DNA of 62,967 nt, filler included, from Reclinomonas americana ATCC 50394 (Eukaryota), in NCBI GenBank assembly GCA_048213135.1. It is 17 parts of 17 records of this genome, joined end to end, with 100 filler letters (N's around TTAATTAATTAA, not from the genome) between each part and the next. Parts side by side here need not be neighbours in the genome. Positions count along the whole stretch, not along the records: positions 19,166 to 27,224 come from AFZH01019831.1; 16 more parts are not named here. One strand, written 5' to 3'. This document shows positions 19,793-24,885 of this stretch, piece by piece (positions within the stretch are counted from its first letter, which is position 1; each line of letters starts with the position of its first letter). The notes under the pieces are model-generated. The model did not search any database. It had not been told where the DNA came from and worked only from the letters and a program-made list of their open reading frames with translations. Position numbers and translations under genes: made by a program.

Positions 19793-22700
19793 TCACAAAA
19801 CTACATTGGTGAAATCAGGCAGGAAGGAGCCGAGAATGCGCTCGAGTATCTTGATTGCGCGGCCTCCCAGTCGGTACATCTCGCCACTTGCCAGCGACCA
19901 CACCCGTACAGTCTCGTCCTCGCTGCCACTCACGACGTGCTGGCCATCGGGTGTCACTGCCACTGCATTCACCTCACTCGTGTGGCCATCAAGTCGGCGC
20001 ACCTCCTCGCCACTTGCCAAAGACCACACCCGTACAGTCTTGTCCACACTGCCACTCACGACGTGCTGGCCATCGGGTGTCACTGCCACTGCACGCACCA
20101 AATTCTTTTCGTCTTTCAGAATCTGCAGCCGGCGCAACTCCATGGCACTTGCCACCGACCATACCCGTACAGTCTTGTCATCACTGCCACTCACGACGTG
20201 CTGGCCATCGGGTGTCACTGCCACCGCATACACCTCACTTGTGTGGCCTTCCAGTCGGCGCACCTCCTCGCCACTTGCCACGGACCACACCCGTACAGTC
20301 CAGTCCTTACTGCCGCTCACTATGTGCTGGCTATCGTGTGTCACTACTACTGCACGCACCCAATCCGTGTGGCCTTGCAGTCGGCGCATCTCTTCGCCAC
20401 TTGCCACTGACCACACCCATACGGTACTGTCAGCACTGCCACTCACAATGTGCTGGCCATCGGGTGTCACTGCCACTGCACACACTTCTCTTACGTGGCC
20501 CTCCAGTCGACGCACCTCCTCGCCACTTGCCACCGACCATACCCGTACAGTCTTGTCCTCACTGCCACTCACAATGTGCTGCCCATCGGGTGTCACTGCC
20601 ACTGCATTCACCTTCCATGTGTGGCCTTCCAGTCGGCGCACCTCCTCGCCACTTGTCACCGACCACACCCGTATAGTTTTGTCCCAACTGCCACTCACAA
20701 TGTGCTGGCCATCGGGTGTCACTGCCACTGCATTCACCTTCCATGTGTGGCCTTCCAGTCGGCGCACCTCCTCGCCACTTGCCGGTGACCAGACCCGTAT
20801 AGTCCCGTCTCGACTGCCACTCATAATATTCTGGCCATCGGGCGTTACTGCCAGTGCATACACCGAGCCCGTGTGGCCTTGCAGTCGGCGCACCTCCTCG
20901 CCACTTACCAGTGACCATACTCGCACAGTGTTGTCCTCACTGCCACTCACAATATGCCGTCCATCGAGTGTAACTTCTACTGCACACACACCACTCGTGT
21001 GGCCTTTCAGTCGGCGCACCTCCTCGCCACTTGCCAGCGACCACACTCGCACAGTCCTATCCACACTGCCGCTCACAATGTGCCGTCCATCGAGTGTCAC
21101 AGTCACTGCATATACCACACTCCTGTGGCCTTCCATTCGGCGCACCTCCTCGCCACTCGCCACCGACCACACCCGTAGAGTCCCGTCCGCACTGCCACTC
21201 ACAATGTGCTGCCCATCGATTGTCACTGTTACTGCACATACACCCCAGGTATGGCCCTCCAGTCGGTGTACCTCCTCGCCACTTGCCACCAACCACACCC
21301 GTACAGTCTGGTCCTCACTGCCACTCACAATGTGCCGTCCATCGGGTGTTACTGCCACTGCCCACACCTCACTCGCATGGCCTTCCAGTCGGCGCATCTC
21401 GTCGCCACTTCCCAGAGACCACACCCGTGCAGTCTGGTCCTCACTGCCACTCACAATGTGCCGTCCATCGGGTGTCACAGTGACACACGTAACCGTACTA
21501 GTGTGACCTTCCACTCGGCGCACCTCCTCCCTACTTACCACCGACCACACCCGTACAGTTTTGTCCCAACTGCCACTCACAATGTGCTGGCCATCGGGAG
21601 TGACGGCTACAGATGTCACTTTGTCAGTGTGCCCCACCAGCGGCTTCCTCGGCCACTTCACACCCGCCACATCCGCCCTCCTGAAATCCGCCTCCATCGC
21701 AAACGCCATGCACAGATTCACCCCTCGCAAATCCGCTCCCCTCCACACCGTCCCGTGCATCACCGCATCTCTCAAATCCGCACCCCTCACTCGCACACCA
21801 GACAGATCTCGCCCACTGAATGACACTTGTGCCATGCACAGCACCGTCGCTGCATTCGCGGCTGCCGTCACCAGTCGCTCCTCGTCCACCTCCCGTGACA
21901 GCTCAATCACCTCCCACAGCCTCGCTTGGAGTGTGGGAGACCGTCGCACCAGCTCGGCCATCTGTTCCATCAACGATGGTCTGTCATTCAGCAGTCGCAC
22001 AGCCAACACATGCTGCTGCACATCTTGCATCGTCAATCTCCTCTCCTCATCCCACGTCTCCCACACAAATACATGCCGTGTCACACAATGCTCCAAAAAC
22101 GACAGGTGCACAAATCCCCACTGACTTGTTCCATATCGTCGCACAATAGGACAGCACACTCGCACATGCTGGTTCTTGCTGCCGAGAAACTTGTCAAATG
22201 GTCCTTCATCCACTTGCCCACCGGCAAGTGGAGCGCCGCCAAAGTCATCCTCACTTGATTGATTCTCCATCACAGACACACGCACCACATTTCTCTCATG
22301 CATCAACCGAGCCAGTCCCTCACAGAAAGAGAGACACGTCTCCTCACTCGGCACTCGCTCCGAACCCAGACGCGTCTGCCTCTCCTGCTCCCTCGCAATC
22401 CACTGTCGGATGAATCGGTCAAACACATCACACCGAGTCGGTTGCTGAACGCTACTCTCCAACAGCAGTGGCAACACACGAACAATAACTGCCAGCATAA
22501 ACGGATTCGATACCAGCACATTCAATCCCTGTACGCTCTTCAGGGCACGAATGTACTTTTCGACGGTCGACCATCGCACATCTCCGGCATCGTCGCCACC
22601 CACTTGTACCAGTCGCTCAAGATACTCCACAATCTGCCACTCGCTGAACGGTGCAACGTGTCGCTCTATCAGCTGCTGCATGCACAACTGTCCACGCGCA

Positions 22701-24885
22701 TCCACCGGTGCAAAGTACCGTCGATACTGTGTCACTCCACCCAGCGCCGTCAGTGCGTAATCACCTCGACAGGTGATAATCACCTTCACATTGCGACATA
22801 CGTCCAGCTGGTTCTTGACAAACAGATTCACACCACGATACAACTCATCGTATCCGTCGAGCAACAACAGCAGCGGTTCGTTCTTCAACTGTCTCACATC
22901 AGACTCCAATCCCAACTCGGGTGACAATCGCTCCAATGCCTCCTCCAACAATCGCTCATCGGCATTGCGCAGAACACCGAGAGGCACACGCACAGGCACT
23001 CGTCTGCTCTCTCTCATCTGCCACAGTCGCCATGCTCGCTCAGCCAACATTGATATTGTGATTGTCTTTCCAGCTCCACTGTTGCCGAACAGAACCAACA
23101 CACGCTGCGCGGTGTTGGTGTCGGAGAGGAATGCATCCACATCTGTCAACAGATCCGTCAGCTCGTCACCTGACGAGACGTCACGATCACGTGAGCACAG
23201 CAGTGGCACGTACATCTGCATGTCCTTGCGAACACTCTCATCGTGCTGATAGAATGACAGCTCACGCACAGCCAGTCGATGTAATCGCTCCTCGAATGTG
23301 CTGATAGTGAGCTGGACAGAACGTGCCTCACGTACACGAGCAGTGAATCGAGAGAATTCGTCGGCCGTCAACCAAAGGCGAGAGAGGATGGAGAGGAAGA
23401 GACCACCATCACCGAGGTACTGCTGAACAGTGGCATTTGAATACTCAAACGAACCGTGAACCATCTCATTTCTCACGCCACGCAGTTCCTCCACAGCCTT
23501 CCGTTCATTGGTGTCGTCAATGAGCAACAGCTTGCGACCGTCATCATAAACGAAGCCACCATACAGCATGATGGAGGTGAGTGCCGTCGTGTCGAAACCG
23601 TCACATGGAGGGCTGTCGTCGGGGGACGCATACCACGCCAATATGGCTGTCTGCTTATTGTCAAATAACTTGACTCGTCCGGGATAGCGCGGAGCGTGCA
23701 TTACACGCCATGATTCCGCAGCACCTGAATGCATGTGCGTGTCAGTTGGCACAATGCTGGGCACCCATTTCCAGAAGTCGCAAGAATTGATGCGAGGGGA
23801 ATACAGGTCTACTGCCCACGCCCGCATGTCAAAGTCAGGATGATCTCGACGAAATTGAACCAGTGCGCACTGGCATCGCAGGCGCATGGCGTCCTCCACC
23901 ACCTCAAAGGCCATGTTGATGCGCTGTAAATTGATCATGCTGCATGTAGCAAGTATCGATGGTCAGCAATGATTAACAGACAATGGTGAATTGTTCAAAC
24001 AGATAAATACACACCGAGTCTGTCGAGCTCTCTCAACCTCCGCAGTGCTGTACGCAGCGATTGATGTGACCAGAAAACGGACGGCAAGACACGAGATGGC
24101 CCGAACCTTCCCACGTCAACAACAGTCAGCGGCGGCAATGCTTCAGGCGTCAGCGGGGCGAAGAGCTGTGAGGTTGAATTGACTTCAACTACTGCATCCA
24201 GACTCGAGCTCGGTACATTGGCGTCCGTCACGTCGCAGTCCGATGGCTTCTCCTCACGCAACACGGTCAACTTCTTGTCACCGCGCTGCTCTGGCGACGG
24301 ACATGTGGTGTCATCTTGAGAGGCAGCACGTGCGGGCGTGGCCGACACACCGTCCACGATCACAGAGGGTGAAGAATCAAGCTCGGCAGTCTCGCACCTC
24401 GAGCTCGGAAACTGTTGTGAAATACAGATATTAGGGAGTGTGTTGTGCGCGAGGACCGCAATACCCAAGGGAACTTTTCGCACCGATGCAACCCGCGATT
24501 CCTCGCGAGCAGACTGCGCTCCGTCGAGAGAAGAAGTCACGCGGACGACGAGATGAGTGGATGAGTTGATTCCGAGGTCTTCGAGCTCGAAAACATCCGC
24601 CTTGGCCATCTTGAATGCGCTCGGCTTCTCCACCCCCACAATCTCCATCTTCCCATCTCCACTCTTCTCACGCAGCAAGCGTGTGGCCTCGCGCAGCAAG
24701 TCCGCGAGAGTGGACATGGCCGACATGCCTTCCACCACCACGGACAGCGATGAATCATGCGCCGCACTCACGTGCACAGAGAACTGTGACACATACAACA
24801 AAGACAGTGAGCGACAAGCAATGAGAAAGAGAGAAGCAAGCGAACAGCAAGCGTCCCCCACGCAATCAATACAACTCACCGACAT
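19793..24885 (-). CDS. NLR-like STAND protein: probable UBL exons, then HEPN-like domain, NACHT NTPase, pentapeptide repeats and 14 WD40 repeats. The core 19793-23938 is one uninterrupted ORF
   Basis: Walker A VLVLFGNSGAGKT, Walker B LLLLLDGYDE, sensor VIITCR, NPFML, winged-helix FVHLSFLEH. Pentapeptides FSGRDLSGVRVRGADLRDAVMHGTVWRGADLRGV. 14 x 42-aa WD40. HEPN-like FDTTALTSIML...AVEELRGVRNEMVH. The 5' exons (ATGTCG|GTGAGT at 24885-24880, acceptor at 24783) are inferred from splice signals and are less certain. Confidence 0.85.
19870..21645 (-). repeat. 126-nt coding tandem repeat (14 WD40 units with high internal conservation)
   Basis: Units are very similar at the DNA level (units 8 and 9 nearly identical), with variation concentrated at a few codons. 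Confidence 0.9.

Follow-up and report, generated by a model that had tools for sequence, protein, structure and literature searches.

The main open reading frame in the stretch of DNA that we analyzed (62,967 nucleotides of Reclinomonas americana ATCC 50394, filler included; hereafter the window) is a real, intact gene for an NLR-like STAND protein, P0001, in which a HEPN-like N-terminal domain is followed by a NACHT domain, a helical region, a pentapeptide segment, and 14 WD40 units (Table 1). The NACHT domain matches PF05729 over aa 279-397 (31.0 bits, E 2.8e-7), above the curated Pfam cut-off of 26.7. Walker A (GxxxxGK[ST]) and the acidic pair of Walker B (hhhhDGxDE) are both intact, and the two motifs are invariant in an alignment with the proteins P0004 and P0005. 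Downstream, PF00805 matches aa 703-730 (E 4.3e-7) and NCBIfam pentapeptide models match aa 701-774, which identifies a beta-helix segment, and PF00400 matches 14 stretches (E 1.9e-160). The NACHT-pentapeptide-14xWD40 STAND architecture proposed in the initial annotation is borne out by these matches.

Table 1. Features of the NACHT locus and its surroundings, with positions counted along the window.
Feature	Residues (aa)	Position (nt)	Strand	Remarks
Main ORF, P0001		19793..23938	-	1381 codons plus stop, open throughout
N-terminal domain	1-240	23219..23938	-	candidate CXorf38/DZIP3/Swt1-type HEPN; orphan at sequence level
FDTTALTSIML	115-125	23564..23596	-	paired in hhalign with the D..aLl helix conserved in Swt1-type HEPN
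Motif helix TNERKAVEELRGVRNEMVHGS	143-163	23450..23512	-	sole stretch with HMM and profile similarity to HEPN
RNEMVH	156-161	23456..23473	-	location of Rx4H motif with N after R
NACHT NTPase domain	279-397	22748..23104	-	Pfam and motifs
Walker A GNSGAGKT	285-292	23063-23086	-	
Walker B LLLLLDGYDE	356-365	22844-22873	-	
Post-NACHT helical region	398-700	21839..22747	-	conserved with bacterial NACHT-pentapeptide-WD40 relatives
Pentapeptide-repeat segment	701-761	21656..21838	-	Pfam, NCBIfam
14 WD40 units		19883..21655	-	period 42 aa, single spacing of 45 aa
Candidate GT..AG intron		24010-23940 (71 nt) or 24012-23924 (89 nt)	-	read by eye
Upstream ORF		23995..24885	-	296 codons from ATG at 24885; no Pfam family
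Small 7-blade WD40 gene, 362 aa		25236..26324	+	divergent to NACHT gene; neighbouring paralogue family
Small WD40 paralogue 1 of tandem three		16229-17326	+	
Small WD40 paralogue 2 of tandem three		17498-18583	+	
Small WD40 paralogue 3 of tandem three		18673-19417	+	spans gap linker

Sequence similarity among the WD40 units is high, with a mean pairwise identity of 70% at the amino acid and 78% at the nucleotide level, and Tandem Repeats Finder reports them at 19880-21598 as 13.6 copies of a 126 nt period with 81% matches. Variation among the units is focused at unit positions 10-12, 14, 30, and 32, the rest forming a constant scaffold. We infer that the 14 units fold into two seven-bladed propellers. 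The small WD40 genes in the surroundings include three tandem paralogues (16229..19417, plus strand) that point toward the 3′ end of the NACHT gene.

An upstream ORF lies on the same strand as the main ORF in another frame; its stop is 57 nt before the main ATG, and its own ATG is the position, 24885, that the initial annotation had given as the outer limit of the feature. Against codon frequencies learned from other genes in the window, the usage of this ORF is coding-like and reaches 0.175 bits per codon in frame versus -0.107 and -0.030 out of frame, and the N-terminal domain of P0001 reaches 0.112 in frame versus -0.018 and -0.123 out of frame. Removal of either candidate GT..AG interval, 71 or 89 nt long, would fuse the two ORFs into one continuous reading frame. 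The upstream ORF is likely to represent the 5′ exon(s) of the same gene, or else a separate gene; as a further exon it would probably add about 290 residues without a recognizable domain, and the Swt1-profile signal discussed below was sought in it and was absent. Both the start codon of P0001 and its 5′ exon are predicted.

The 528-aa core of P0001 aligns by tblastn near full length to bacterial proteins, with E values down to 3e-55 and an identity of only 24-30%, and its nearest relatives in the prokaryote collection are bacterial. Our search for relatives matched a pattern in 532 stretches, from which 171 confirmed relatives were obtained and 79 loci kept; counted from the listed titles, 54 of the 79 are held by contigs of Mycoavidus MAGs. 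Two relatives (L010 and L033) combine NACHT with pentapeptide repeats, L010 continuing into 11 WD40 stretches, and another two (L016 and L009) combine NACHT with WD40. A family termed NACHT-PPR-WD40 has been described from Mycoavidus cysteinexigens and Mortierellomycota (10.1101/2021.12.02.471044) and is also mentioned in a second report (10.1101/2022.03.16.484565). P0001 resembles it in the colinear order of NACHT, helical region, pentapeptide segment, and WD40 over about 520 residues. Membership is defined by colinear domains together with similarity along the whole core, both of which are found in P0001, and as judged from sequence its core belongs to this described NACHT-pentapeptide-WD40 family, which shows expansions in Mycoavidus, an endosymbiont of fungi, and in other intracellular bacteria. 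In a FastTree of 47 cores, which contains no reference clades, P0001 pairs (support 0.86) with the JGI protein P0003 and falls outside the Mycoavidus clades, and the deeper nodes are weak.

What varies across the family is the N-terminus, while the relatives tested carry the same Pfam domains as P0001 in the core. Among the N-terminal regions of 51 bacterial relatives, 15 match ARM_5 and 9 match TPR models only, and a kinase occupies the N-terminus of P0003. These other modules fit a swappable effector or adaptor slot, and they uphold the earlier proposal that a separate module sits at the N-terminus of P0001. A HEPN-like head was found in none of the 51 regions scanned, which sets P0001 apart from these relatives.

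The initial annotation had identified the P0001 head as HEPN, citing an RNEMVH motif that does lie exactly at 23456-23473. This motif agrees with the Rx4-6H pattern of HEPN domains (usually RN...H), with R, N, and H all intact, although a six-residue pattern is by itself weak evidence. At E up to 10, Pfam reports a single family, HEPN_Swt1, for the N-terminus; its score of 13.7-14.9 bits (E 0.03-0.08) is sub-threshold, at about half the cut-off of 27.5, and neither PF18738 nor PF15112 is reported for P0001 at E up to 10. With hhalign, comparison to a Swt1-type profile of 86 bacterial sequences gives P 0.0034-0.0035, a probability of 9%, and 52% identity over 21 columns. The real hhalign score lies above those of all 150 full shuffles; of 150 shuffles in which only aa 143-163 were kept, 76 equal or exceed it. 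Because these motif-kept shuffles score so well, the HMM and profile evidence is the same motif that the initial annotation saw. Outside this one 21-residue helix, nothing matches the bacterial Swt1 profile beyond chance in the shuffle control, and this includes the alignment of FDTTALTSIML.

Support independent of the motif helix comes only from a language model, whose result is a lead and not an alignment. In the ESM Atlas, aa 1-265 of P0001 match HEPN_Swt1 at 0.80 and HEPN_DZIP3 at 0.78; aa 1-142, without the motif helix, have DUF4559 (0.92 and 0.91) and a DZIP3-like HEPN (0.90) as their top matches, followed by a DZIP3 cluster (0.84) and a Swt1 cluster (0.81). The matches share 148-160 of 256 features, below the 170 typical of true family members, a calibration that does not cover parts of proteins. 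As the tool itself notes, a score of 0.9 is attained by just 4-10 in 100 shuffled proteins. The earlier HEPN claim is partly supported, by the Rx4H motif and by the proximity of aa 1-142 to the DUF4559/DZIP3 clusters, whereas the Pfam and profile matches are sub-threshold and confined to one helix. On the combined sequence evidence, we consider the odds to be somewhat better than even that the 240-residue module belongs to the CXorf38 (DUF4559)/DZIP3/Swt1 branch of HEPN domains, as a highly diverged member with an intact RNx3H.

A lesser but real possibility is that the architecture is as described and the first 240 residues form a helical module specific to the lineage and unrelated to HEPN (an adaptor, an oligomerization cap, or another effector) in which RNEMVH and its helix resemble HEPN by chance. 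The confinement of all profile signal to one helix and the sub-threshold Pfam match are what such a module would give. AlphaFold2 run without an alignment returned unusable models (pLDDT 34.9 for aa 1-270 and 38.2 for aa 96-240), and a search of 1.84 billion representative proteins yielded no sequence relative of the domain. Moreover, 27 of the 51 bacterial N-terminal regions have no Pfam match at E 0.001 or better, so heads without an assignment are common in the family. Against a chance resemblance, the motif-free aa 1-142 independently point to DUF4559/DZIP3 clusters at scores that shuffles rarely attain, and the agreement of this result with the Pfam superfamily is not expected from shuffles. 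The position before NACHT is also where HEPN domains of the DUF4559 and DZIP3 types are found in animals (PMC9646362, PMC8298618).

Molluscs, cnidarians, and amphioxus are in fact well known to have HEPN-NACHT proteins, some of which contain WD40 repeats, and the novelty implied by the initial annotation was overstated. The CXorf38 motif corresponds to DUF4559 (PMC4554924), and HEPN domains of the CXorf38 and DZIP3 types are fused to NACHT in animals (PMC3710099, PMC9646362, PMC8298618). More than 50 NACHT proteins of the pearl oyster have a DZIP3-like HEPN N-terminus, with Rx4H as the commonest motif (PMC9646362), and 45 of 99 NACHT genes of a clam contain DUF4559 (PMC8298618). In a unicellular organism, Capsaspora, an expansion of DZIP3-type HEPN has been tabulated (PMC3710099, Table 1). 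The candidate head of P0001 resembles the proteins of bivalves, cnidarians, and cephalochordates (DZIP3/hRUL138-type, PF18738; CXorf38/DUF4559-type, PF15112) in that a HEPN-type domain with RNx3H directly precedes NACHT, in the C-terminal repeat sensors, which are reported to include WD40 (PMC9646362, PMC8298618, PMC3710099), and in the ESM Atlas placement of aa 1-142. It differs from them in that P0001 lacks an HMM-level match to either Pfam family, its N-terminal domain lacks detectable homology in the representative library, and its NACHT core appears from sequence to be of the pentapeptide-WD40 type found in bacteria and not of an animal NLR clade.

Two further systems invite comparison. 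In fungal non-self-recognition NLRs, WD40 units vary at few positions on a constant scaffold. P0001 shares with the fungal HNWD proteins (HET-E and HET-D; HET-NACHT-WD40) the layout of effector, NACHT, and WD40, as well as near-alike WD40 units that vary at few positions, a pattern that would match the fungal one. It differs in having a pentapeptide segment between NACHT and WD40 and in lacking a HET domain, which was sought in aa 1-770 with Pfam at E up to 10. With the bacterial antiviral STANDs (bNACHT, Avs), P0001 has in common the single-chain logic of sensor, switch, and effector, and the enzymatic effectors recorded for bacterial NACHT proteins include HEPN (10.1101/2022.07.19.500537, Supplementary Discussion). 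The host of P0001 is eukaryotic, and the phage context does not apply. PADLOC models, including those for Avs and bNACHT, gave no significant match to P0001, the best being weak and partial (PDC-S60, E 0.0077, 12.4 bits; mad8, E 0.029, 11.9 bits).

The explanation that we hold to be best, with a probability slightly above even, is a eukaryotic nuclear gene for an NLR-like STAND protein with an intact NACHT core and a HEPN-like N-terminal module, which by analogy may act as an RNase switch. A ligand would bind the variable face of the WD40 propellers and release an NTP-dependent oligomerization of the NACHT modules, which would bring the N-terminal domains together. If these are HEPN, the paired domains would jointly make up an RNase site and cleave RNA of the cell or of the invader; the cell may then stop growing or die, or the invader may be restricted. 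The immune role suggested here for P0001 is an argument from analogy only. It is quite improbable that the protein is HEPN-derived and yet no infection sensor, being instead a regulatory or RNA-binding STAND switch (in which HEPN only binds RNA or serves RNA processing) or a self/non-self or symbiont-management factor; the intact R, N, and H of RNEMVH speak against this, as do WD40 units that vary at few positions on a constant scaffold in the manner of fungal non-self-recognition NLRs. In its favor, a role in host-endosymbiont interaction has been left open for the NACHT-PPR-WD40 proteins of Mortierellomycota and Mycoavidus (10.1101/2021.12.02.471044).

The preferred explanation places the gene in the eukaryote itself, as the initial annotation had done, and the sequence supports P0001 as a nuclear gene of an intron-bearing eukaryote. 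The GC content of its contig, 55.6%, is like that of the Sey1 and Prp3 contigs and unlike that of the bacterial-type contigs in the window (61-69% GC, with NMT1/THI5, AMP-binding, and EamA genes). The contig contains long dinucleotide microsatellites of (TC)n, (CA)n, and (GT)n with up to 61 copies, wide non-coding spacers, and intron-like sequence, and it has ACGT-type repeat ends in common with the contig bearing the Sey1 GTPase, whose gene in the window is split over several frames in colinear order. In codon usage, the upstream ORF and the P0001 N-terminus agree with ORFs on other contigs (Sey1, Prp3, RWD, and ankyrin). X-NACHT-pentapeptide-WD40 genes are frequent in bacteria, and an origin of the contig in a bacterial associate or contaminant would agree with the bacterial affinity of the core, the bacterial-type contigs in the window, and the intronless main ORF, but is very improbable in view of this composition, the microsatellites and spacers, the common repeat ends, the eukaryotic codon usage, and an identity to every bacterial relative of just 24-30%.

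The significance of these findings is bounded by a layout that was already known and by a HEPN effector that is a candidate assignment. A more far-reaching reading, which we regard as unlikely, is that a unicellular eukaryote has a working RNase-armed chimeric NLR, in which an animal-type (CXorf38/DZIP3-like) HEPN head would be set on a NACHT-pentapeptide-WD40 chassis typical of intracellular bacteria; the gene is embedded in an array of free seven-blade WD40 genes whose repeats belong to the same family, and these genes could be sensor-cassette donors, decoys, or partners. If the head is an active HEPN domain, P0001 would be a cell-autonomous receptor that couples sensing to RNA cleavage in a eukaryote outside the animals with described HEPN-NACHT proteins, and its core, shared with endosymbiotic bacteria, would bear on the assembly of NLR-type immunity and its exchange between bacteria and eukaryotes. 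Should the chimeric reading be true, endosymbionts and hosts would have exchanged the chassis, and HEPN-NLR immunity would predate animals or lie outside them.

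The protein encoded by the main ORF of the receptor gene belongs to both the NACHT and the NACHT-pentapeptide-WD40 families. Pfam places 14 WD40 stretches in it (E 1.9e-160) and, when the WD40 part is taken out, a NACHT domain and pentapeptide repeats, the latter in agreement with NCBIfam pentapeptide models; both Walker motifs are intact. These results bear out the layout proposed in the initial annotation, in which a NACHT module is followed by pentapeptide repeats and 14 WD40 repeats, and the Rx4H motif reported there is present as RNEMVH at exactly the place claimed. The WD40 array is composed of 14 units of 42 aa, with a single spacing of 45, and the mean pairwise identity of the units is 70% in protein and 78% in DNA. 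Variation among them is focused on positions 10-12, 14, 30, and 32, which adjoin a GH dipeptide and fall within SGSxDxT, a pattern like that described for diversifying surface positions in the WD40 repeats of fungal NLRs.

Positions of the receptor gene, its parts, and the surrounding features (nucleotides along the window; residues along the product of the main ORF)
Feature	Nucleotides	Strand	Residues	Remarks
Small WD40 gene	16229-17326	+		tandem, downstream of the NACHT gene and converging on it
Small WD40 gene	17498-18583	+		tandem, downstream of the NACHT gene and converging on it
Small WD40 gene	18673-19417	+		tandem, downstream of the NACHT gene and converging on it; spans a linker
Linker (example)	19066-19165			100 bases
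Receptor contig	19166-27224			8,059 bases, 55.6% GC
Main ORF (NACHT gene)	19793-23938	-		1381 codons, open throughout
Rx4H motif, RNEMVH	23456-23473	-	156-161	
NACHT domain		-	279-397	Pfam, 31.0 bits against a cut-off of 26.7
Walker A, GNSGAGKT		-	285-292	
Walker B, LLLLLDGYDE		-	356-365	
Pentapeptide repeats		-	703-730	Pfam
Candidate GT..AG intron	24010-23940	-		71 nt, by eye
Candidate GT..AG intron	24012-23924	-		89 nt, by eye
Upstream ORF	23995-24885	-		296 codons from its own ATG; stop 57 nt before the main ATG
Small WD40 gene	25236-26324	+		upstream of the NACHT gene, divergent
Linker (example)	27225-27324			100 bases
Sey1/RHD3-type GTPase gene	28978-30261, 30557-31618, 32924-33691	+		
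Contigs with bacterial-type genes	48832-62967			six contigs, 61-69% GC

The 17 contigs of the 62,967-base window measure 1.2-10.2 kb and are separated by 16 linkers, each made up of 44 N, TTAATTAATTAA, and 44 N and carrying stops in six frames. The order of neighboring contigs appears not to be random, since some of them carry parts of one gene. One of the small WD40 genes enters a linker, and WD40 coding in the same orientation resumes directly beyond it; the gene for a Sey1/RHD3-type GTPase is distributed over at least three colinear frames on two adjacent contigs. The split, colinear arrangement of these frames points to spliceosomal introns in the source organism. The contigs from 48832 onward hold bacterial-type genes (NMT1/THI5-like, AMP-binding enzyme, EamA transporter) and probably derive from a bacterial associate or from contamination, so that the assembly is of mixed origin. 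That the receptor contig is likewise of bacterial origin is very improbable: it carries microsatellites ((TC)61, (CA)27, (CA)22, (GT)18, and others) and wide spacers, and it matches the contigs with Sey1/RHD3, Prp3, RWD, and ankyrin genes in both GC content and codon usage, all of which argue against such an origin. We can say of its source only that it is a eukaryote. Rfam and tRNA scans of the whole window gave no matches.

A second ORF lies upstream of the main ORF on the same strand, in another frame. When scored with a codon table trained solely on the other genes of the window (2,719 codons), the upstream ORF reaches 0.175 bits per codon in frame, against -0.107 and -0.030 in the other two frames. 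The corresponding values are 0.112 against -0.018 and -0.123 for the N-terminal domain and 0.240 against -0.070 and -0.030 for the NACHT part, and flanking spacers stay near 0 in all frames (range -0.04 to 0.10). Either of the two candidate GT..AG introns would join the upstream and main ORFs in frame, and a GTGAGT...CAG interval, also identified by eye, immediately follows the ATG at 24885. Because the upstream ORF scores as coding and such in-frame intervals are available, 24885 is likely the right outer limit of the gene, as initially annotated, and the receptor protein likely has ∼290 extra N-terminal residues encoded by the upstream ORF. No Pfam family matches this ORF, and the Swt1 profile gives no signal on its tail (12.0; shuffles average 9.6 and reach at most 15.5). 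One small sequencing run (6% of sampled words) covers only WD40 scraps and a 429-nt piece of the neighboring small WD40 gene and is uninformative on expression and splicing.

Relatives were recovered for the NACHT-pentapeptide-WD40 core of the receptor. Among 8,000 candidates scored from a collection of 5.8 billion clusters, four near-length proteins pass E 0.001; all four align from NACHT onward only (the three best at 32-26% identity), leaving the N-terminus unmatched. The closest relative of the core is P0003, a JGI protein of 1610 aa, the head of which is a protein kinase. Its post-NACHT region contains an internal near-duplicate of ∼100 residues, which could be real or an assembly artefact. 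An alignment of the core with two other protein relatives, P0004 and P0005, was used to scan one genome per prokaryotic species, and this yielded 532 pattern stretches, 171 confirmed relatives, and 79 loci that were kept. Counted by title, 54 of the 79 are on Mycoavidus cysteinexigens MAG contigs, and the others include loci from Coxiellaceae, Chlamydiae, Gammaproteobacteria, Myxococcota, Bacteroidota, Streptomyces, and cyanobacteria. The better bacterial matches cover ∼520 residues of the core at 24-30% identity. The bacterial relatives tested have domains of the kinds seen in the receptor: two loci (L010 and L033) combine NACHT with pentapeptide repeats, L010 extending into 11 WD40 stretches, and two more (L016 and L009) combine NACHT with WD40. 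In a FastTree analysis of 47 cores, which is arbitrarily rooted and has weak deeper nodes, the receptor and P0003 form a pair (support 0.86) that falls outside the Mycoavidus clades; we draw no direction of transfer from this tree. Mycoavidus, a fungal endosymbiont, has a greatly expanded set of NACHT-pentapeptide-WD40 genes on its MAG contigs, and single scaffolds hold several of the loci (L001-L062). According to one preprint, Mycoavidus was the source from which Mortierellomycota obtained their "NACHT-PPR-WD40" NOD-like receptors (10.1101/2021.12.02.471044), and another notes NACHT-WD40 homologues in Mycoavidus (10.1101/2022.03.16.484565).

The head of the receptor (aa 1-240) is a candidate HEPN domain. 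The only Pfam family that the N-terminus matches with E no higher than 10 is HEPN_Swt1; at 13.7-14.9 bits, it stays below the HMM cut-off of 27.5 for HEPN membership, and the match spans aa 144-169 only. For profile comparisons, Swt1-type HEPN domains were gathered from the genomes of four prokaryotic phyla, with matches in 45/401, 12/401, 23/301, and 21/301 genomes. Such domains are common in the sampled prokaryotes (the first figure is for cyanobacteria) and mostly lie within open frames of ∼1100 aa or ∼400 aa. With hhalign, the head aligns to 26 cyanobacterial Swt1-type domains over 21 columns (52% identity, P 0.0034, probability 9.5%) and to 86 diverse ones over 67 columns (aa 112-185, score 23.8, P 0.0035, probability 9.2%). 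None of 150 full shuffles of the head reached the real hhalign score (mean 11.8, maximum 21.8); when aa 143-163 alone were left in place, 76 of 150 shuffles reached it (mean 24.6). All of the profile evidence therefore comes from the single helix recognized at the outset; by the same control, FDTTALTS, which had been counted as part of the HEPN pattern, adds nothing measurable against the bacterial Swt1 profile.

The N-terminus was also compared with ESM Atlas clusters. For aa 1-265, the best clusters are HEPN_Swt1 (0.80) and HEPN_DZIP3 (0.78), which we treat as leads only. For aa 1-142, which excludes the motif helix, two DUF4559 clusters (0.92, 0.91) and a DZIP3-like HEPN cluster (0.90) rank at the top, followed by DZIP3 (0.84) and Swt1 (0.81); the tool itself states that a score of 0.9 is attained by 4-10 of every 100 shuffled proteins. 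The shared features for this stretch number 148-160 of 256, below the 170 typical of true members in a calibration made on whole proteins. DUF4559 is described as the CXorf38 motif in a passage of PMC4554924, and the relevant section of Anantharaman et al. (PMC3710099) places CXorf38 among HEPN domains of the Swt1-like group, fused to NACHT in cephalochordates and cnidarians. AlphaFold2 without an alignment produced unusable models (pLDDT 34.9 for aa 1-270 and 38.2 for aa 96-240).

Searches for relatives of the head gave no real match with phmmer in 1.84 billion representatives (aa 1-270), nothing below E 1 in the PDB, no confirmed relative among 118 pattern matches in JGI metagenomes, and nothing with phmmer in the complete set of ORFs from the 79 bacterial loci or in the protein relatives P0003-P0006. 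Two phmmer matches to aa 1-270 were rejected as spurious, being repetitive proteins with scores summed over 6 and 8 stretches; for one of them, P0008, BLASTP pairs one query stretch with many repeat units. We also scanned 51 bacterial N-terminal regions of at least 120 aa upstream of cores with blastp E <=1e-20; 15 match ARM_5 (PF23948), 9 match TPR models only, 27 have no Pfam match at E <=0.001, and none of the 51 has a HEPN head.

No HEPN test on the head reaches a conventional threshold, which counts against the assignment. Because two nonoverlapping parts of the head point to one superfamily, and because heads of this kind in animal proteins likewise precede NACHT, we lean moderately toward a HEPN domain. 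The HEPN head proposed in the initial annotation is partly supported: RNEMVH and the nearness of aa 1-142 to HEPN clusters speak for it, and the subthreshold HMM match and a profile signal confined to one helix weigh on the other side. Published work describes HEPN-NACHT proteins, some with WD40 repeats (PMC9646362, PMC8298618, PMC3710099), and HEPN among bacterial NACHT effectors (10.1101/2022.07.19.500537); in unicellular Capsaspora, DZIP3-type HEPN has expanded in a lineage-specific manner (PMC3710099, Table 1). A HEPN head on a pentapeptide-WD40 chassis was not found in the 51 bacterial relatives or in the literature searched.

The small WD40 genes around the receptor are each a single ORF of ∼360 aa with seven blades, which begins with an MSSVPPLICR-type start right behind a microsatellite and ends in a common C-terminal tail of the CLPEMVLRCFLVEDAEA type. 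Their mutual identity is 60-67%, and their units share 75-81% DNA identity with the receptor units. The units of these genes and of the receptor belong to one repeat family, and nothing in the sequences points to very recent exchange. As speculation, the small genes could be partners, decoys, or repeat donors of the receptor.

The receptor is not a member of the HNWD family because it has no HET domain, and PADLOC defence models gave no convincing match to it. What is observed is a parts list, from which a mechanism can be proposed on the model of NLRs, bacterial STANDs, and HEPN RNases. A ligand would be bound by the double propeller, NTP-dependent oligomerization of the NACHT modules would follow, and the heads would thereby be drawn together; were the heads HEPN domains, they would then make up a composite RNase site. 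In its way of working, the receptor may be likened to the animal HEPN-NACHT proteins.
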